20,000 nt of DNA from an uncultured virus (IMG/VR IMGVR_UViG_3300035510_000375) (Duplodnaviria; Heunggongvirae; Uroviricota; Caudoviricetes). The stretch lies in the IMG/VR virus record IMGVR_UViG_3300035510_000375; one strand, 5' to 3'. Within the stretch, counting starts at the first letter, position 1. Each line of letters opens with the position of its first letter. The notes under the pieces are model-generated. The model was given only the letters and a program-made list of their open reading frames with translations, searched no databases and was not told where the DNA came from. Below, in pieces: positions 1 through 9,789 of the stretch. Made by a program: the position numbers and the translations under genes.

Positions 1-233
1 TTTTCTTTTTGGATAAAAATTTCTGATAGGATATGTTTCATTTTCTTTTCTATATCTTCACATTTAGAATAGTATTTATGTAAAGCTGCATAGCAAGCTG
101 TATTATCTTCTTTTCTAAAATGCTCTGATATTCTACGTCTTATATTTATTGCTCTTCCAATATAAATTTTATTATTAGGAAAATTAATTTTATAAATACC
201 AGAAATATGTTGCGGAATTTCATTATACTTCAT
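1..233 (-). pseudogene. GIY-YIG homing endonuclease inside gyrA intron 2 (runs off window; probably internally deleted)
   Basis: Not in the ORF track. ATG at 233 after GAAAGGAG; translates MKYNEIPQHISGIYKINFPNNKIYIGRAINIRRRISEH (GIY..YIG..R). After ...CEDIE the GIY-YIG similarity stops, while another frame reads RYRKENETYPIRNFYPKRK. Confidence 0.8.
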
Positions 234-418
234 AAAAGTCTCCTTTCATTGTTTCCCACGGGATTACCATTTAATATTTTACATTATAATATTAAATTAT
301 AAATGAGGCATTATTCTATTTTGCCCTAAAAAATATTAGGCAGGCTTCCCCGTTACCCATACTTTATATATGAGCCTTGTGGTGAACAAGAAAGGTAATA
401 ACACAGGCATTATTACAT
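1..418 (-). ncRNA. Group I intron 2 of topoisomerase A gene (3' end outside window)
   Basis: Exon ends NGTQGIG (GGU at 421-419), then AUG UAA. P1 hairpin GGUAU-GUAAUA-AUGCC places a U.G pair at the splice site. P-like GUAACGGGGAAG (~346-357) and Q-like AAUCCCGUGGG (~255-265), followed by the endonuclease ORF. Confidence 0.85.
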
Positions 419-706
419 ACCAATACCCTGAGTTCCATTAACGATGTTGTAAAAACCTTTAGACGGAAGAACTGATGGATACTTTTCAGTATCATCATAA
501 TTATCTCTCCACTCTTCTACAGTATTCTTATCTATATCTTCAAATAATTTAAGTGAAAAATTGCTTAATCTTGAAGAAGAATAACGAGGCGCTGCCCAAT
601 TACCAGTTTCCATTAAGTTTCCGCCATTACCTTCTATTTCAATCAGCGGATACCGCATAGCAAATGGTTGACCCGATCTCATTATAACGCCTTCTGCACT
701 TGCGTC
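419..706 (-). CDS. gyrA: Type IIA topoisomerase subunit A (GyrA/ParC-like), exon 2
   Basis: 96 codons DASAEGVIMR...MRYPLIEIEGNGG...AAPRY (catalytic Arg-Tyr)...NYDDTEKYPSVLP...IVNGTQGIG; flanked by introns at codon boundaries. Confidence 0.92.
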
Positions 707-981
707 CAATAATTATTAACCATAGGCTTTTTATCCTATGCTCTGGAGCTTTCGCTCATTTTCATCAAATAGTCTTTTCTATTTCAGTTTAGCATATCTT
801 TTCATCTTTATTAGATGTCGCGGCCTCGTGGAGGGATTATATCTTTTCACCCTCTATGCGTTGCCCCTGACTATAGTTTCTATAGCCTTCGGTTCGGATT
901 AGCATATCATTTCTGATTTAGCCTTCCCGCTTAATTCCGCGATTTTAACACGGCAACTAAAAATTAATTTTTTACTACTCT
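707..981 (-). ncRNA. Group I intron 1 of topoisomerase A gene, ORF-less, 275 nt
   Basis: Removal joins YIHG to DASAEG (conserved HGD). Exon CACGGU pairs with intron GCCGUG (U.G at the splice site); terminal G at 707; P AAUUAAGCGGGAAG, Q GCUAAUCCGAACC, P3 UCGCGG/CCGCGA, P7 GCAUA/UAUGC, extra GAGGG/CCCUC hairpin between P7 and P3' (IA-like). Confidence 0.92.
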
Positions 982-1203
982 ACCGTGGATATACATTCGG
1001 GCTACCGAACCTATAGCTTTCAAAGTCTTTTTAAATGGTTTATTAGGCAAGAACTTATCTGTATATAAACAATAAAAAATTTGTCTTGCAGAGGGTTTTA
1101 AACAATCTCTTACATCTACAAGCGCTCGTGATTGGAGTACAGCTCCCGCATAGGTAGTAAAACTATCTTCAATAATAGATTGCATATTTCTTTCTATATT
1201 CAT
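982..1203 (-). CDS. gyrA: Type IIA topoisomerase subunit A, exon 1
   Basis: 74 codons MNIERNMQSIIEDSFTTYAGAVLQSRALVDVRDCLKPSARQI...MYIHG match the GyrA/ParC N-terminus (RALPDVRDGLKP..R); AGGAG RBS upstream. Confidence 0.93.
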
Positions 1204-1234
1204 ATTTTTCTCCTAATTATTTTTCTTTATTATA

Positions 1235-1263
1235 ATTATAATATTATTTTTAATTAAAATCAA
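1235..1263 (-). promoter_or_regulatory. Sigma-A/70-like promoter upstream of gyrA
   Basis: TTGATT-17 nt-TATAAT on the minus strand. Confidence 0.7.
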
Positions 1264-1272
1264 ATAAAATTT

Positions 1273-1878
1273 TTATTCATGAATTGTAGCAAAATCTACA
1301 TTTTTAAATATATAATCTGTACGATAACTTACATCATCACCCATTAGTTCTTCTAACATTTGGATTGCGTTAGGATTAGGTTTTAATACTTCCATTCTTT
1401 GAAATTCATCCGAGAACATTGAACGTTGGGCTTGCTCTGTAGATAAGCTTCCTAAGCCTTTGTTTCGCTGAACTTCCCCTTTAATAGAATCTCGTACTGC
1501 ATTCATTTCTTCATCTGTAAAATAATACTGTTCTTCTTTTCCATTTTTTACAATATAAAGCGGAGATTTTAACCAGCATAATCTATTCTCTTGTATAAAT
1601 TGTGGCGCAAGATATTGCAAAGCGGACATAATCAACAAGCCTATGTGCGCGCCATCACTATCTGCATCGCTACATATACCTATTCTACCATAGCGCAATT
1701 TAGCGGGATTATATTTTCCTGGTACAATATTCATAGCTTTTAGTAATAATTTAATTTCTTCATTATCAGCAATTCGCTCTTCATTATTACTAAGGCAATT
1801 AATCATTTTTCCTCTGATTGCAAGAATCCCATACTTGGAGTAATCACGTGCATTAGCCATGGCACCTGCAGCACTATC
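1273..1878 (-). CDS. gyrB: Type IIA topoisomerase subunit B (GyrB/ParE-like), exon 2 (Toprim domain)
   Basis: Starts DSAAGAMANARD, six codons before the annotated ATG; contains AIRGKMIN (PLRGK-like), DADSDGAHI (DxDxDG) and QRNKGLG. Confidence 0.93.
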   Translation of the reverse strand, partial: DSAAGAMANARDYSKYGILAIRGKMINCLSNNEERIADNEEIKLLLKAMNIVPGKYNPAKLRYGRIGICSDADSDGAHIGLLIMSALQYLAPQFIQENRLCWLKSPLYIVKNGKEEQYYFTDEEMNAVRDSIKGEVQRNKGLGSLSTEQAQRSMFSDEFQRMEVLKPNPNAIQMLEELMGDDVSYRTDYIFKNVDFATIHE

Positions 1879-2528
1879 CGTGTGCTCCTATATTTCTATA
1901 GGCACTGACTATCTCTTCACTCTGGTTTGTCAAACCTTCATCGTGTCCTCTATTTCGAAATATGTATCAATAATATTTCTACTACAGGTCTCGCCCTGTA
2001 TAGTCGATACAGCTTATTCTATATCTTTATAAGTTTGGTGTGTTACTATATTATATATAGTAAACCATGCTTTATCTGGCACATATTTTAACCAAACTTG
2101 TTTTGGACTCATACCATTATCATAATCTTGTCTCATTTGCAAAACTTGTTCTTTTGTAAAAGCTTTTGTATTATTAGCAGCAATTTCAGAAGCATTTGCT
2201 TTTGCTTGGTGAGAATGCCAATATTTATTTTCTGCATTATTATATTCAGGATGAATATTTTTCCAATTTTCAAAATACCATACTTTTTGCAGCCCTCTTT
2301 TAGAAATTTTATCTTTAAATTCTGCATAAACAGTTCTAAAAGGAATATGATTAAAATATCAAGTTTTGTCCAAAAATTTTTCAATATAAAATCTTGCCAC
2401 GGGATTGACTTCGCCTAAACTTGTTTTGACTTACAAGTGTAACGGTCAGCTTTCCCCGTTAGCTACTTATTTTTAATTAAGTAACCCCACTGATGAGGTG
2501 GTAAAAAGGATTAGGGCAATAATTACTT
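1879..2528 (-). ncRNA. Group I intron (IA2-like) in gyrB, 650 nt
   Basis: Removal restores LIVEG|DSAAG. Exon AGGGU pairs with GCCCU (U.G), terminal G at 1879, P10 AUUAUU/GAUAGU, P GCUAACGGGGAAAG, Q AAUCCCGUGG, R GUAUCGACUA, S GAAGAGAUAGUC, and two hairpins after R (UACAGG/CCUGUA; GAAAUAU/AUAUUUC) resembling P7.1/P7.2. Confidence 0.93.
2014..2358 (-). pseudogene. Start-less C-terminal remnant of an intron-encoded homing endonuclease (DNA-binding repeats)
   Basis: Open frame of 114 codons between TGA (2361-2359) and TAA (2016-2014): YFNHIPFRTVYAEFKDKISKRGLQKVWYFENWKNIHPEY...FTKEQVLQMRQDYDNGMSPKQVW...YNIVTHQTYKDIE. It lies between intron Q and R elements, with no start codon at the 5' end and no nuclease motif. 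Confidence 0.65.
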
Positions 2529-3764
2529 ACCCTCTACTATTAACAGCGTAGACCCAGGTCCTAAGAACTCCGCGTCTTTTAATTTATCTGAATTAAATAC
2601 TTTTTTACTAGCATTTTTTTCTATTTCTTTTGAAGTTTCAAGGATTTGACGTCTAGCTCTATCTGCAGCTTTTTCTGCCTTTTGAACTTTAATTAACATC
2701 TTAATAATATTATCAAAGTCTGTACTATTCTGAAATTCATCAAGTCCTTCTTTAAAAGCTTTTGAAGCAAGAGTACGAAGATTAGGATTATTTATCTTTG
2801 ATTTCGTTTGATTTGCAAAAGAGGGTTCAGCAACTTTGCAATTAATAGCATAAACTAAACCTTTCCTAATTAAATCTGCATCTAAGTCTTGTCCGCTCAT
2901 TTTCTTGATTTGTGTTGTTAATGTTGTTTTAGCTCCTGTAACTGGACTTCCGCCCTCATTACAATACAAACCATTAACAAAAACGTGTGCAGCTTCTTTC
3001 CCCGCAGTCCAGCAGAAAGCAATTTCAACCTCATCTATTTCATCTTTTGCTTTACAAATAATAGGCTTCATTAATGGAGATTTTGCTTCTGCTATAACAA
3101 AATCTGCAATACCATTTTTTGAATAAAATTCTTTTTTCTGTTTTGTCTTTTTATTAGTAATAATAAAATGTACACCTTTATTAAGATAAGATATATTTTT
3201 TATTTCACTTATTATTCTATCAAAAGTAAAAGTATCAGTCATATTTTTAAAGACTTCTTTATCAGGAATGAAGCTAACAAAAGTACCATTTTTTTCTTTT
3301 GTATCAAATTCTTTATAGTTATCTAAAATTCCTTTAGTAAAGTTTGCGGCAGCCGCTTTTCCATCTCTATAGCTTTCAACTGCAAAAGATAGAGAAGAAA
3401 GACATACTGCACTTGCTCCAATTCCATTTAATCCAGAGCTGTTTGCATATGCACCTTTTGTAAATTTACCACCAGTATGAGATTCTGTATAAATAGATAC
3501 TAATACATTTTCTCCATTGTCTCTAATACCAAATGGCACTCCCCTACCATAATCCCTAACAGAAATTAAATTTTTATCTTCATCTACTTTAATCTCTATT
3601 ACATCGCCATAGCCAGCCAGTGCCTCATCTGTTGAATTATTTACAATTTCTTTAAAAGCTTGATAAATTCCATCTGTATCATCAGAACCTAAATACATTG
3701 GAACTTTTTGTCTAATGCCCTCTCTAAAGGTTAAATGTTGAATATCATTTATATCATATGACAT
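2529..3764 (-). CDS. gyrB: Type IIA topoisomerase subunit B, exon 1 (GHKL ATPase + transducer)
   Basis: EGIRQKVPMYLG, EIVNNSTDE, DYGRGVP, HTGGKF, SGLNGIGASAV, FANQTKSKI, LLIVEG; spliced product would be 613 aa; AAAGGAG RBS. Confidence 0.95.
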
Positions 3765-3795
3765 TATTTATTTCTCCTTTTTATTTTTTTATTAT

Positions 3796-3824
3796 ATTAT
3801 AACATAATTTTTATTAAATTTCAA
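3796..3824 (-). promoter_or_regulatory. Sigma-A-like promoter upstream of gyrB
   Basis: TTGAAA-17 nt-TATAAT with extended -10 TG. Confidence 0.72.
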
Positions 3825-3849
3825 ATATTAAAAAATTAAAAATTTTTAC

Positions 3850-3878
3850 TTGACTTTTTAAAAATTTTATGATATCAT
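3850..3878 (+). promoter_or_regulatory. Plus-strand sigma-A-like promoter with no downstream gene
   Basis: TTGACT-17 nt-TATCAT with TG extension. Confidence 0.45.
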
Positions 3879-4045
3879 ATTTATATAAGGAATAAAACAA
3901 AAGAAAACTAAATTCTAGATCCTATATTATACTAATCTAATTATATATTATTATAAAATATTAAGTCAATTTTTATATTCTAATTTTTATAATTTTCTTT
4001 CATAATTTGCTGTTTGTAAACTATATTATTTTTTATTCTAATATT

Positions 4046-4156: not shown

Positions 4157-4969
4157 TTAAACTTTCTTAGTATAATTCAGTGAAATCCAACCTTTGCCAG
4201 ATTTTAAATATCCCCAAGTACCAGAAGTTTTTGTAATTGTATAAGTACCCTTGTCTTTAATTACACCAGTAATTGCATATTTAGTTCCAGGGCCTTTTCT
4301 AATATTTAACGCGCTTGCTGTTACTTTTACTTTATAACTTGAAGCAGCAGTGCTTGATTGTGTAGTCGTAGTAACTGCCTTAGTAGAGCTACTAGTCTTA
4401 GCTTCCGCGCTTGTAGACACGGTTGCCACATTTAATTTTGCCGTTACTTTTGTAGCTAAATCACCAAGCTTACCATACATCCAATCACCTGGACAAGCTG
4501 TATTACTAAACCAGCGATGTGCTGTTAGTACCATTTCATCTGCTGCTGGTGTATAATTTAATGCGGTATTTTTATCTCCTAACCAAAGTAATTTCTTCTT
4601 ACCATTTCTCTTGCAAATATCAGTACATAATTCAATTAATTTATTATAAACTGTATTGTTAAAAGCATAAGGTGCTGTTAAATCAGAAGCACATTCAATA
4701 GTAATTGCTCTCTGATCATTTGCACTACTGCTTGAACACCAGCTTCTATTAGCTTCATCTACTACTAATACAATTTTACCATCTTTACCTATTGCATAGT
4801 TACAACTAGCTTTTCTACTAGTAGGAGTAAAGATGCTGCCAATTGACTCTGCAGTAAGCTGTCCTACTACACAGTGAGGTGTAATTCTATCAATAGTATG
4901 AGTTCTAGCTCCACTATGATTAGGACTCTTGATTGTACATCCTATTAATGAACTATTTGTATATTCCAT
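4157..4969 (-). CDS. Endolysin: N-acetylmuramoyl-L-alanine amidase (Amidase_2-like) + Thr/Ser/Ala linker + SH3b cell-wall-binding domain
   Basis: ITPHCVVG, SCNYAIG, ITIEC, TAHRWFSNTACPG Zn-amidase motifs; C-terminal ALNIRKGPGT...WGYLKSGKGWISLNY. Confidence 0.92.
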   Translation of the reverse strand: MEYTNSSLIGCTIKSPNHSGARTHTIDRITPHCVVGQLTAESIGSIFTPTSRKASCNYAIGKDGKIVLVVDEANRSWCSSSSANDQRAITIECASDLTAPYAFNNTVYNKLIELCTDICKRNGKKKLLWLGDKNTALNYTPAADEMVLTAHRWFSNTACPGDWMYGKLGDLATKVTAKLNVATVSTSAEAKTSSSTKAVTTTTQSSTAASSYKVKVTASALNIRKGPGTKYAITGVIKDKGTYTITKTSGTWGYLKSGKGWISLNYTKKV

Positions 4970-4970
4970 A

Positions 4971-5321
4971 TTACTTATCTCCTTCTACATAAGATTTTAC
5001 GTTTTCGTTTTGTTCTAACATTGTTTTAAATTTATCTAAAGCTTCGTCTACTAAAGTACTAAACTGATCAAAAGGGATAATCTTAGCAAGCCATGTAAAT
5101 TTAGCAATAAACATATCATAAACATAACGTAATTTAATTTGTCCAGTTCCAGAGCCTAGTTCTTTTTCAGCTTCTGTTACTGCGTATAATAACCATTCTT
5201 TTACTTTTTCAATCTGTTCTGTCGTTGGTCTTGTTGCAAAAGCATAAATTGCATATCCTGCGGCAGCGAGCACCGCAATAGCAATAATAATAATTAACCA
5301 ATTAGATATTAAAAAACTCAT
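4971..5321 (-). CDS. Holin-like membrane protein (LL-H-like)
   Basis: Likely start MSFLISNWLII at 5321 after AAAGGAG; single N-terminal TM helix; AVTEAEKELGSGTGQIKLRYVYD motif; directly upstream of the endolysin. Confidence 0.75.
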   Translation of the reverse strand: MSFLISNWLIIIIAIAVLAAAGYAIYAFATRPTTEQIEKVKEWLLYAVTEAEKELGSGTGQIKLRYVYDMFIAKFTWLAKIIPFDQFSTLVDEALDKFKTMLEQNENVKSYVEGDK

Positions 5322-7658: not shown

Positions 7659-8405
7659 TTAATCTGCGCTTATTGGATTAAAGGATGCCATAGGCATTAA
7701 CTTAAATAAATTCTGTTTATGTAATTTATCAATTTTTTCTTTTATTTCTGCGGGAGGCTCAATGCCTTCTCCGATATATTTATCAAGAGTCTCATAGGTA
7801 AAGCCAAGATTATCTTCATCGGTCTTTCCGCAAAGACCATCTGATGGAGCCTTGTCTATCATCCATGACGGAAGTCCAAGTTCTCTACCAATAGCTTTTA
7901 CTTCTGATACCAATAGATTACTAAGAGGACTAAAATCGCCTGCACCATCTCCATATTTAGTAGCATATCCTACCCAATCTTCGCTTTTATTACAGGTATT
8001 TGCAACTCTTCCATTGCAGCTTTGACTTACCGCATAAAGCGCCGCCATTCTAATACGTGGAGGGAGATTAATTGTAGCCTGTGTTGAAAGAGAGCTTGCT
8101 TCATATTCAATTTCTGCAATAAGTTCTTTAACTGCCGCCCCAATATTTACAGTACAACTATAAATATTTAAATAAGTGCAAATATCCATAGCATCAGATA
8201 GGTCACTTTGGGTGTTATTAGGCATTCGTACTCCAATAACTCTATTTGCACCTAAAGCTTCTACACAAAGTGCGGCGACCACGGTTGAATCCTTCCCGCC
8301 CGAAATTCCCACTACCGCATTACAACCTTTACCATTTTCCTCAAACCAATCTTTAATCCATTGTACACATCTATCTTTTACTTCTTTTGCATTAAAATCC
8401 TTCAT
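7659..8405 (-). CDS. nadE: NH3-dependent NAD+ synthetase
   Basis: GISGGKDS, NLPPRIRM, TCNKSEDWVGYATKYGDG, KAPSDGL, TDEDNLG; no glutaminase domain. Confidence 0.95.
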   Translation of the reverse strand: MKDFNAKEVKDRCVQWIKDWFEENGKGCNAVVGISGGKDSTVVAALCVEALGANRVIGVRMPNNTQSDLSDAMDICTYLNIYSCTVNIGAAVKELIAEIEYEASSLSTQATINLPPRIRMAALYAVSQSCNGRVANTCNKSEDWVGYATKYGDGAGDFSPLSNLLVSEVKAIGRELGLPSWMIDKAPSDGLCGKTDEDNLGFTYETLDKYIGEGIEPPAEIKEKIDKLHKQNLFKLMPMASFNPISAD

Positions 8406-8416
8406 AATATTTCTCC

Positions 8417-8503
8417 TTAGATTCTGTTTAATACATCATAAAATCTTCTTAAATATTCATATACATTTTCAAGTAAGTTAGTGATAATTGGCTGTAATCT
8501 CAT
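8417..8503 (-). pseudogene. pncB: 28-aa minigene, probable internal-deletion remnant of nicotinate phosphoribosyltransferase
   Basis: MRLQPIITNLLEN|VYEYLRRFYDVLNRI after an AAGGA RBS; the halves resemble the recalled PncB N-terminus (PIIxSLLETDxYK) and C-terminus (EYVxYLxR); located between the promoter and nadE. Confidence 0.55.
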
Positions 8504-8530
8504 TTTTTTCCTTTTTTTTATTATGTATAT

Positions 8531-8559
8531 ATTATATCATAAATTTTTATAAAAATAAA
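8531..8559 (-). promoter_or_regulatory. Sigma-A-like promoter for the minigene and nadE
   Basis: TTTATT-17 nt-TATAAT with TG extension. Confidence 0.62.
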
Positions 8560-8580
8560 GAGCGAGTATTACCTCGCTCT
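8551..8580 (-). terminator. Terminator-like hairpin after RNA ligase
   Basis: AGAGCGAG-6 nt-CTCGCTCT then TTATTTTT; the T-rich tail overlaps the next -35 box. Confidence 0.6.
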
Positions 8581-8586
8581 ATTTTA

Positions 8587-9789
8587 CTATTGATGATATT
8601 TTAATAAAAATTGATTTGAAACCGCTTTAAAGCTTTGGGTTCCATCTTGAGAACGGAATACAAGTCCTTCCCTCATGCCGCTATCTATTGTAGAATCTCC
8701 AGTAGCAAAATCTAACATTTCATCTACTGTTGGTAATAATTTAAAATGGTCATGCAAAATAGGAACCCAAGGAATATCATAAGCTGACATTATTTTAGCA
8801 GACTCCACAGAATTAAGGCGTCCTCTATCCGAGAAGATAAGATTAAAGCCAGCGAACTCGTGCCCTTTAAGAGAGTAATCACGCTTCTGTATGCCGGTCC
8901 CGTAAACTTCGCCTTGTAAAGTGGCCCACTCTAGGTTATATTTTTTTACCAAGTCACCAAGAACTTCCTCAAAATGATATTTCTCTGACATCTCTGTGTA
9001 TGGATTAAACTCATAATAGCAACCCTTATTAGGCTTATCAAATACTACATTTCTACTACAGATATAATATTCATGCTTTTTCTTCCCTTTTCTTTTATAA
9101 GTTGCAGTTGTAGAACTACCATCTATTTTTTCTGTTACTATCCATTTATCCTTGCTCGAAAGAATATGAGGTAGGTTCTGTATCCTCTCCTCATCGGTTT
9201 TTTTCACCCACTCTGGCCACGGATTCTTTTTATCTTTCCTTTTTCCAAAGAAAAGGAACATTAAATTTTTACCCCAACTTCTTTTCATAAGCCATTTTGC
9301 CCATGATTTTTTAAATATCTCTGGGTGTCGCTGTGCCATTTTCTTATATTTATTTGCGGGCACCGCTTTTCTTTGATTATCTTCCGCAACTGCATAAGTT
9401 ACATCTAAAGCCGCAGTCAAAAATTCATGCTCAATATTTCCGCCTTGCTCAACTTTATCTTGCAATCTCTGTAACCAATCTGGTGCATTACCATCTATAA
9501 TAAAGTCATTAAAAGACATAAGTAATCCTTGTGAAATAGACTTACACATCTTTTGAGTTTTTATTTTAAAATGTTTAGGTTCAAGAAATAAAAATGGCTC
9601 TACTTCAGGAACTTTTGAGTCTATTTCAAAATATATAGCATAATTACCGGGTTTAAATTGTCCTTTTCGCACTACAACTCGCCAACCGCCAACAATAGCA
9701 GACTCTACCCTATCATACCCTGGAAGTGGTTCAATCGCATCTATTTTAACTGTATATACGAGTTCTCTAGTACCCTCTGAATTTAACAT
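8587..9789 (-). CDS. ATP-dependent RNA ligase, Rnl2/DRB0094-like, with N-terminal OB-fold-like domain
   Basis: Nucleotidyltransferase motifs TEKIDGSS (I), LQGEVYG (III), REGLVFR (IV), SFKAVSN (V); N-terminal IEPLPGYDRVE...GWRVVVRKGQF...YFEIDS. Confidence 0.9.
   Translation of the reverse strand: MLNSEGTRELVYTVKIDAIEPLPGYDRVESAIVGGWRVVVRKGQFKPGNYAIYFEIDSKVPEVEPFLFLEPKHFKIKTQKMCKSISQGLLMSFNDFIIDGNAPDWLQRLQDKVEQGGNIEHEFLTAALDVTYAVAEDNQRKAVPANKYKKMAQRHPEIFKKSWAKWLMKRSWGKNLMFLFFGKRKDKKNPWPEWVKKTDEERIQNLPHILSSKDKWIVTEKIDGSSTTATYKRKGKKKHEYYICSRNVVFDKPNKGCYYEFNPYTEMSEKYHFEEVLGDLVKKYNLEWATLQGEVYGTGIQKRDYSLKGHEFAGFNLIFSDRGRLNSVESAKIMSAYDIPWVPILHDHFKLLPTVDEMLDFATGDSTIDSGMREGLVFRSQDGTQSFKAVSNQFLLKYHQ

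Follow-up and report, generated by a model that had tools for sequence, protein, structure and literature searches.

The first 3,764 of the 20,000 nucleotides analysed here (the window), which come from the uncultured virus of IMG/VR record IMGVR_UViG_3300035510_000375 (Caudoviricetes), carry on the minus strand a gyrB-gyrA operon whose conserved motifs are broken in three places by extra sequence. The question raised by this locus is what the interruptions are, and whether both subunits of the encoded topoisomerase can be made only once they have been removed from the RNA. Our answer is that the type IIA topoisomerase operon of a gut phage has very probably been invaded by three mobile group I introns from two families, IA-like in both cases, which are spliced in vivo; that all three inserts are group I introns by structure is, taken on its own, close to certain. 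The group I reading follows from the covariation seen in the two intron families, from the exact restoration of both reading frames and from a joined junction found in metatranscriptome contigs.

All coordinates refer to the minus strand of the window unless another contig is named, and a slash within a protein motif marks the point of insertion. The gyrB-like gene opens with an exon of 412 codons (2529..3764; Pfam HATPase_c and DNA_gyraseB) which is colinear with uninterrupted homologues up to its end at LLIVEG, where the last codon is GGT and where reading on would meet a stop codon two codons later. The first insert, B1 (1879..2528; 650 nucleotides, family X), falls at EG/DSA of the Toprim motif, after which the second exon (1273..1878, with the stop codon at 1275..1273) resumes with DSAAGA and matches Toprim from profile position 8 as well as DNA_gyraseB_C. 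The gyrA-like gene begins with an exon of 74 codons (982..1203) ending in YIHG and continues with one of 96 codons (419..706) which runs from DASAEG to NGTQGIG and contains an RYSSSR stretch that we take to be the region of the catalytic tyrosine; both again end in GGT. Between them lies A1 at HG/D (707..981; 275 nucleotides, without an open reading frame (ORF), and belonging to the AR9-like family Y), and the second exon is followed at GIG/V by A2, another member of family X, of which the window holds the first 418 of 560 nucleotides (1..418). The last 142 nucleotides lie past window base 1 and were taken, like the rest of the operon, from the IMG/VR contig L003, which is 100% identical to the window over the 3764 bases. 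In that contig the third gyrA exon, beginning with VGASSSLPQFN, follows the 560-nucleotide insert, and across both gyrA inserts the matched positions of the Pfam profile DNA_topoisoIV abut one another (1-49, 50-144 and 145-428).

When the exons were joined in silico by these coordinates, a GyrB of 613 and a GyrA of 799 amino acids were obtained with no internal stop, and on alignment to three uninterrupted homologues no gap was seen at any junction. The preliminary description of this DNA, made from its letters alone, had proposed in-frame interruptions at EG/DSA, at HG/D and directly after NGTQGIG, with junctions at 2529/1878 and 982/706, and had named an alignment to intron-less phage homologues as a check; the three sites are borne out by the Pfam positions and the restored frames, both junctions are exact, and the count of "at least three" inserts can be narrowed to exactly three, since the joined proteins (the L003 portion included) align without gaps. 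Identity to the intact homologues is 52-57% for GyrB and 38-42% for GyrA, with all five exons open and in phase and with no frameshift. The domain set of a type IIA topoisomerase, with GHKL ATPase, transducer, Toprim and tail in B and with a winged-helix/tower and a beta-propeller C-terminal domain in A, is complete (HATPase_c, DNA_gyraseB, Toprim, DNA_gyraseB_C, DNA_topoisoIV and five DNA_gyraseA_C repeats in Pfam), and from these domains the product is predicted to be a GyrB/GyrA-like, or "gyrase-like", enzyme. The full-length forms of both subunits are obtainable only from spliced RNA.

Amongst metagenomic gyrA homologues, the HG/D site is uninterrupted in 78 of 80 and the GIG site in 76 of the 78 that could be scored, one upstream row having been reclassified by eye. 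As most of these genes run straight through both sites, the inserts have been added only sporadically to a gene that is otherwise continuous. The same arrangement, with all three introns, is present in two IMG/VR contigs which match at 100% identity (L003 being one of them), and the nearest virus record (G001) has a 58-base match only and is without the operon. In one of the metagenomic gyrA homologues (L239:3789-3848) there is an in-frame stop within the conserved SVP-YN stretch shortly past the GIG site, which may be a sequencing error, a case of recoding or the mark of a pseudogene.

All three inserts carry the signature on which the preliminary description had relied, namely a 5' exon ending in GGU, a P1 helix with a U.G pair and, in the complete introns, a terminal G, and this signature was recovered both in the sequence and in the coordinates of the helices. 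The exon end pairs with the internal guide, with the U.G pair at the splice site, at 2533..2529 with 2517..2513 in B1, at 987..982 with 954..949 in A1 and at 423..419 with 408..404 in A2, where P1 has just three base pairs and a wobble extension. The last base is a G in B1 (1879), in A1 (707) and, with the help of L003, in A2 (L003 9906), and by eye each 3' exon could form a P10, its first three to six bases being complementary to the stretch immediately 5' of the P1 guide. The folding z-score of A1 is -4.37.

B1 and A2 resemble each other, and inserts of related phages, in their 5' and 3' parts, and a pattern built from the two strands of P7 matches at least 119 IMG/VR stretches of this family X. 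RNAalifold, applied to 11 of the 21 ORF-less copies (the other ten being seven of a variant subtype in nrdD and three with long P5 insertions), returned P4, P5, P6, P7, P7.1, P7.2, P8 and P9 with compensatory changes in 25 of 43 pairs. In this structure 96.2% of the cells are paired, against 77.0% when shuffled and 35-43% when slid. Scoring by column was impossible for P3, which was instead scored by duplex energy with all mismatched combinations as the control: cognate strands reach -5.52 kcal/mol against -4.15 kcal/mol for non-cognate strands, a mean which none of 5000 permutations reaches, with at least five of the 31 rows (L090, L093, L097, L110 and L155) still mis-anchored and kept in the test. 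An earlier version with a bad anchor had been reached by 129 of 1000 permutations, the figure of 0 in 5000 having been obtained after re-anchoring on the first hairpin. Two other candidates for this helix in B1 and A2, the P/Q pairing as P3 and the P7.2 arm as the 3' strand of P3, were ruled out by the relatives.

All core elements of family X are intact in B1 and A2. In B1 the 3' half of the core (1907..2005) has P7 (2005..2000 with 1912..1907) enclosing P7.1 (1999..1984), P7.2 (1979..1957), the 3' strand of P3 (1951..1946, pairing with 2510..2505) and P8 (1936..1924). Two relatives occupy the same EG/DSA site, one without an ORF (L091) and one with a homing endonuclease gene (L092), and the minimum-energy fold of the former gives P1, P4-P6, P7, P7.1, P7.2, P8 and P9 (z = -4.16), the P1 helix of B1 recurring in it. 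At GIG/V the relatives are L098, L147, L151 and L152, in which DNA_topoisoIV resumes at profile position 145-147.

A1 belongs to a different family, Y, and its 3' part is approximately 88% identical over roughly 100 nucleotides to both gyrA introns of the Bacillus jumbo phage AR9. An exact 24-mer of A1 recurs at 33 loci of IMG/VR, which represent no fewer than eight exon contexts, and relatives are found at the same HG/D site in L005, L010, L199 and L219. For 25 of the 31 distinct copies (of the remaining six, five are not alignable in the 5' two-thirds and one is a near duplicate) RNAalifold gave 42 pairs, 28 of them compensatory, including a long-range P7 which encloses the P7.1 hairpin, a single strand and the P8 hairpin. 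With the P3/P7 pseudoknot included, and counting the 12 copies whose 5' strand was available, 89.2% of the cells are paired against 69.4% when shuffled (a value reached by 0 of 500 shuffles) and 31-45% when slid, and 43 of the 58 pairs change on both sides. The core of A1 (792..954) comprises the guide (954..949), P3 (942..937 with 823..818), P4 (929..926 with 898..895), P6 (887..869), P7 (859..855 with 796..792), P7.1 (854..831) and P8 (817..803). P7.1 and P7.2 hairpins after the 5' strand of P7 are what we take to be the mark of subgroup IA, and both families have extra hairpins at this place, two covarying ones in family X and one in family Y. Such subgroup IA hairpins are mentioned in a passage of PMC3984707. 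In the HG/D introns of two family-Y relatives (L010:8087-9390 and L005:4824-6000) there are long ORFs near the intron 5' end, before the guide and P3, one of 340 amino acids in L010 and two with LAGLIDADG-like motifs (by eye) in L005, and the 3' domain is shorter than that of A1.

The third line of evidence comes from RNA. Contigs from three metatranscriptome runs of three studies (X1, X2 and X3) were placed along L003:5900-12000, and contigs of X1 and X3, which belong to two studies, join L003 9346 directly to 9907. The 560 nucleotides skipped, with ends AT..CG, have exactly the boundaries that the structure had predicted for A2. In X3 the joint has a depth of 3.1 and 83 letters on its shorter side; in X1 its depth is 7.8 against 8.95 for the intron arm, with the exon-3 contig at 18, contig depth being an unsafe basis for ranking the parts of a gene.

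In the mechanism which we propose, the primary transcript would carry all three introns, and in each of them the guide would pair with the ...GGU end of the exon to form P1 with its U.G pair. The catalytic core would consist of the P3/P7 pseudoknot together with the P4-P6 domain, an external guanosine would attack after the U, the terminal G would dock, and the ligation of the exons would restore the EGDSA, HGD and GIGVG motifs. Catalysis, as well as the splicing of B1 and A1, is predicted here from the reading frames and the covarying structures.

Several observations weigh against introns of this kind, some from the search models and the structures and others from the RNA. No match to Rfam was found at the gathering score in the whole window, and at E<=10 positions 1-4000 gave three chance matches, none of which is an intron. 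The best match to the group I model RF00028, with the A1 insert searched alone, is a local one of 13.0 bits (gathering score 50; E 0.57) to window 895-929, in P4-P5. The preliminary description had looked to a covariance-model search for confirmation; RF00028 did not provide it at the gathering score, and it is comparative covariation which supports the group I reading instead. The Rfam result is itself uninformative, since the same library also misses the annotated gyrA introns of AR9 and 20 loci with relatives of B1. According to passages of a 2025 survey of the Bastillevirinae (PMC11878797), phage introns may escape the models of both Rfam and GISSD. As to the structures, in family X both strands of P7 were fixed by the search pattern, so that this helix is bound to be invariant and carries no information, whilst the strand called P3 in this family directly follows P1, with two covarying hairpins between it and P4. 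Such a layout is not known from textbook group I introns, and because of this unusual placement the helix names used for family X are tentative. In family Y, P3 is paired in just 63.9% of the cells, as its register shifts on the alignment; double changes occur in five of the six P3 pairs, and within individual sequences the two strands can be seen by eye to be complementary.

The remaining observations of this kind come from the RNA contigs. No spliced junction of B1 or A1 was seen in the contigs of the three RNA-library runs, which show presence and not absence, parts of the operon being uncovered (for example L003 8964-9159 in X1). Of the junction evidence which the preliminary description had proposed to seek, there is thus none for 2529/1878 and 982/706, and what was found instead is the GIG/V joint of A2 in two studies. 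The 5' splice site of A1 is crossed unspliced and unbranched in X1 (record 3, 7857-8963) and in X2 (record 14, 7896-9056), X2 has contigs which bridge both splice sites of A2 unspliced (records 15 and 16), and the joint in X1 has only 30 letters on its shorter side. The earlier claim that both subunits depend on self-splicing is supported by the frames, the covariation and the A2 joint, its weaker point being the missing B1 and A1 junctions.

Of the alternatives, the one which survives best is that the A2 joint could stem not from splicing but from a co-occurring intron-less allele of the phage, produced by homing polymorphism or by precise loss and present either as DNA, which can occur in RNA libraries, or in the form of a transcript of that allele. 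Activity of the introns would be compatible with this, although the joint would then not demonstrate it. Such an allele would yield an identical junction, and two strains fit better than uniform splicing with the X1 and X2 contigs that cross the A1 5' site unbranched though approximately half of A2 is joined in X1; that X2 shows the unjoined form of A2 only is a further point in its favour. However, no near-identical intron-less allele was found in the collections searched, which may lack records close to the window: both IMG/VR contigs of 100% identity have all three introns, and amongst metagenome homologues identity in the exon-2 protein does not exceed 82%. The uneven depth of the contigs, with B1 five to ten times deeper than the exon contigs in all three runs, also looks like RNA, although ranking by depth is unsafe. 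We regard this explanation as unlikely.

It is highly improbable that one or more of the inserts are dead ribozymes, or simple insertions of endonuclease genes, and that the enzyme is assembled from separately translated fragments in the manner of T4. Naturally split phage topoisomerase subunits do exist, as T4 genes 39 and 60 show, there is an in-frame ATG six codons past the junction in gyrB exon 2, the RNA contigs have no B1 or A1 junction, and the decay of both endonuclease genes makes the elements old. Against this, the splits fall within catalytic motifs and would leave fragments without DSAAGA, or a GyrA piece of 79 amino acids; gyrA exon 2 is without a plausible start codon and, by eye, no ribosome-binding site is suitably spaced upstream of the gyrB ATG. 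In all three copies, moreover, the core helices are intact and agree with the covarying structures of their families, and an ORF-less relative at the same gyrB site is hard to explain except as a spliced element. Finally, a cluster of decaying pseudogenes in which the inserts are mere debris needing no removal, as three interruptions in 3.8 kilobases together with decayed endonuclease ORFs might suggest, is scarcely credible for five exons which are open, in phase, free of frameshifts and conserved to the degree given above, in an arrangement that is identical in two independent IMG/VR contigs and a region that is present in RNA libraries.

The contigs over B1 deserve a description of their own. 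In X1 their depth (L003:7237-7886) is 89.6 against 9.5 and 15.8 for exon contigs, and in the remaining two runs it is 48.8 against approximately 3-8.5 and 15.1 against approximately 1-4, an excess which may reflect the accumulation of stable excised intron RNA. One X1 contig (record 2; 675 letters, 645 of them placed, at L003:7241-7886, that is window 2524..1879) has its first letter at intron base 5 and its last at the terminal G, and the next contig begins 30 bases before that G. In a graph with k=31 this suggests that the last 30-mer of B1 has a second successor, as a circularised intron minus its first four bases would give.

The P6 loops of B1 and A2 hold the remains of homing endonuclease genes. 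In B1 the remnant (2017..2358) has 114 codons, no start codon and no Pfam match of its own; it is 69% identical over 113 amino acids to residues 111-223 of the GIY-YIG-type ORF at the same site in L092 (E 3e-61), and to judge from this alignment B1 retains only the C-terminal half of a GIY-YIG-type enzyme. The GIY-YIG ORF of A2 (3..233 in the window, 100 codons in L003) has the nuclease domain only, with a Pfam GIY-YIG score of 28.3 bits (cut-off 22.6) and nothing after the domain, whereas a complete homing endonuclease of this type would have a C-terminal DNA-binding domain as well. As it ends after 100 codons, against 239 amino acids for the ORF at the same site in the relative L098 (which matches only at residues 10-38), the A2 ORF is regarded as a truncated remnant. 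Both endonucleases are probably inactive, and with both genes decayed the B1 and A2 copies have probably lost the ability to move on their own. The two remnants and the ORF-less L091 represent the usual cycle of invasion, decay and loss of homing endonuclease genes. Inside the B1 remnant, a second IMG/VR contig (L004, of which 1509-1849 align to L003:7407-7748, the region of the remnant) and the RNA runs X1-X3 have a one-base deletion and a G>A change (L003 7495 and 7625); the ribozyme parts stay identical, which suggests the free drift of a dead ORF.

That every intron of the operon follows a GGU codon for glycine can be accounted for by the introns themselves. In both families the guide starts with a GCC-like triplet which pairs with ...GGU, and in family X the exon end and the guide covary (GGU/GCC, GCU/GGC, CGU/GCG and GAU/GUC). 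A script found GGT at 27 of 46 family-X exon ends and five more were added by eye (L055, L080, L157, L159 and A2 of the window), the automatic splice-site caller misplacing some sites of this family; one family-Y copy appears, from a reading of its flanks, to split a codon after GGG-U. The recurrence of GGU thus follows from a family-typical GCC-like guide which covaries with the exon end in relatives, and the rule is a property of the ribozyme families, not of glycine codons as such. Because two unrelated families share a short GCC-type guide and lie after GGU at dozens of different sites, and because many copies are without an ORF, it might be supposed that the introns reach new sites through reverse splicing, guided by the ribozyme, into any exposed ...GGU and not by endonuclease homing. 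Excised B1 RNA might in addition persist at a high level, possibly in circular form; we put both ideas forward as a speculation which is rather doubtful.

The host genes of family X were determined from the first long open frame after each copy (97 copies, 90 of them distinct), with Pfam at E<=0.001. Anaerobic ribonucleotide reductase (nrdD) accounts for 36 of the 90 distinct downstream exons, followed by GyrB-type (14, nine of which are above the Pfam cut-off), DNA polymerase III alpha (nine), GyrA-type (four), family A polymerase (three) and RecJ (one), with 23 giving no match; topoisomerase, at 18 of 90, is the second most common family-X host in IMG/VR. The other topoisomerase sites of the family are at the second acidic Toprim motif (in three phases), after SSGLNG in the ATPase domain and in the GyrB tail near position 12 of the Pfam profile DNA_gyraseB_C, the loci concerned being L005, L011/L012, L015, L059, L066, L075, L096, L099, L112, L128, L133, L153 and L157. 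Between them, the sites of the two families include nrdD, DNA polymerases, at least six sites in gyrB/gyrA and terminase-like ATPases. From the proportion of downstream exons and from these further sites it follows that topoisomerase genes are a common host of family X in uncultivated phages. The hint in the preliminary description that such genes are an uncommon intron target did not hold up, since topoisomerase is the second commonest host of the family and the gyrA of AR9 is already annotated in three pieces. The case is a real but fairly ordinary instance of a well-known phage phenomenon, and the class of intron is not new.

In isolated phages, a blastn search with the ORF-less relative of B1 yielded nothing beyond a match of 45 bases, present in two records of Enterococcus phages. 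In one of these, Enterococcus phage EF5 (L249; MF001361.1, 128133-128177), the match covers P7' to P9 of family X and falls in an unannotated gap, flanked upstream by a fragment of a "DNA polymerase III alpha subunit" and a "hypothetical protein" and downstream by a second "hypothetical protein"; the gap is probably an unannotated intron which splits the DNA polymerase III alpha gene.

The surroundings of the operon in the window are those of a phage, with an amidase-SH3 endolysin, a tail-tip domain protein, a tail-fibre-like ORF with an S74 chaperone domain, an RNA ligase and an NAD synthase. The NAD synthase (7659-8405) and the RNA ligase with a PHA02142 OB domain (8587-9789), both on the minus strand, are accompanied by an NAD-dependent DNA ligase beside gyrA and just outside the window (L003:11876-13234), and the supply of NAD and its use in ligation are thus combined in one phage genome.

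The consequences are practical in the first place. Gene callers cut the operon into four or five fragments (the preliminary description had given four), and a phage topoisomerase would go unnoticed or be called broken in this operon and in many contigs of IMG/VR. The standard Rfam model fails to detect two abundant intron families of phages, and covariance models made from alignments such as those used here would recover hundreds of split genes. For the phage, both topoisomerase subunits would depend on the correct folding of three ribozymes, which is a possible point of regulation or vulnerability and not a new principle, and topoisomerase joins the nrd genes, thymidylate synthase and the polymerases amongst the usual intron hosts of phages.

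Group I introns interrupt numerous phage genes, as is apparent from passages on the Bastillevirinae (PMC11878797) and on the "Jug" jumbo phages of the gut (PMC12880540), the introns of the latter having been validated by metatranscriptome junction reads. Neither source lists topoisomerase amongst the intron-bearing genes in the passages found: the former contains neither "topoisomerase" nor "gyrase", and the latter has "topoisomerase" a single time, only as a conserved core gene. In a literature search confined to one library of papers, no description of a group I intron was found for the gyrase or topoisomerase genes of phages, and both words are absent from a 2014 review of bacterial group I introns. 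Amongst the closest known systems is that of the Bacillus jumbo phage AR9/PBS1 (KU878088, AR9_g044), where the gyrA coding sequence is joined from three pieces and the host gene is thus the same as in the window. Both AR9 introns follow GGT, as do those described here, and fit the same covarying structure as A1. By our own reading they lie at IIG/EYHPHG and DAHG/NFGS, in contrast to HG/D and GIG/V in the window; the gyrB of AR9 is uninterrupted whereas that of the window has an intron, and B1 and A2 are of a different family from the AR9 introns. The two AR9 introns (L002:4294-4647 and 4744-5101; 354 and 358 nucleotides, again by our own reading) are close copies of each other, parted by a 96-nucleotide exon (EYHPHG...DAHG).

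The classical phage introns of the IA2 type are those of T4 td, nrdB and nrdD, of Twort and of the SPO1 DNA polymerase. They resemble the introns of the window in that they occupy conserved motifs of DNA-metabolism genes, have P7.1/P7.2 between P7 and the 3' strand of P3, and carry GIY-YIG or other endonuclease ORFs in peripheral loops which decay over time. Family X sits mostly in nrdD (36 of 90), which is a classical IA2 host gene. No link to these introns was obtained at the level of sequence or of covariance models, RF00028 staying below its threshold, and family X differs from them in the strand which covaries as P3 directly after P1, with two hairpins before P4. A parallel of another kind is offered by topoisomerase II of T4 (genes 39/60), in which a GyrB-like subunit is reported to be disrupted by mobile DNA and rescued after transcription (10.1101/2022.08.31.505936), as would be the case in the window. 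In T4 the rescue takes the form of separate polypeptides and ribosomal bypass, whereas in the window the evidence points to RNA splicing.

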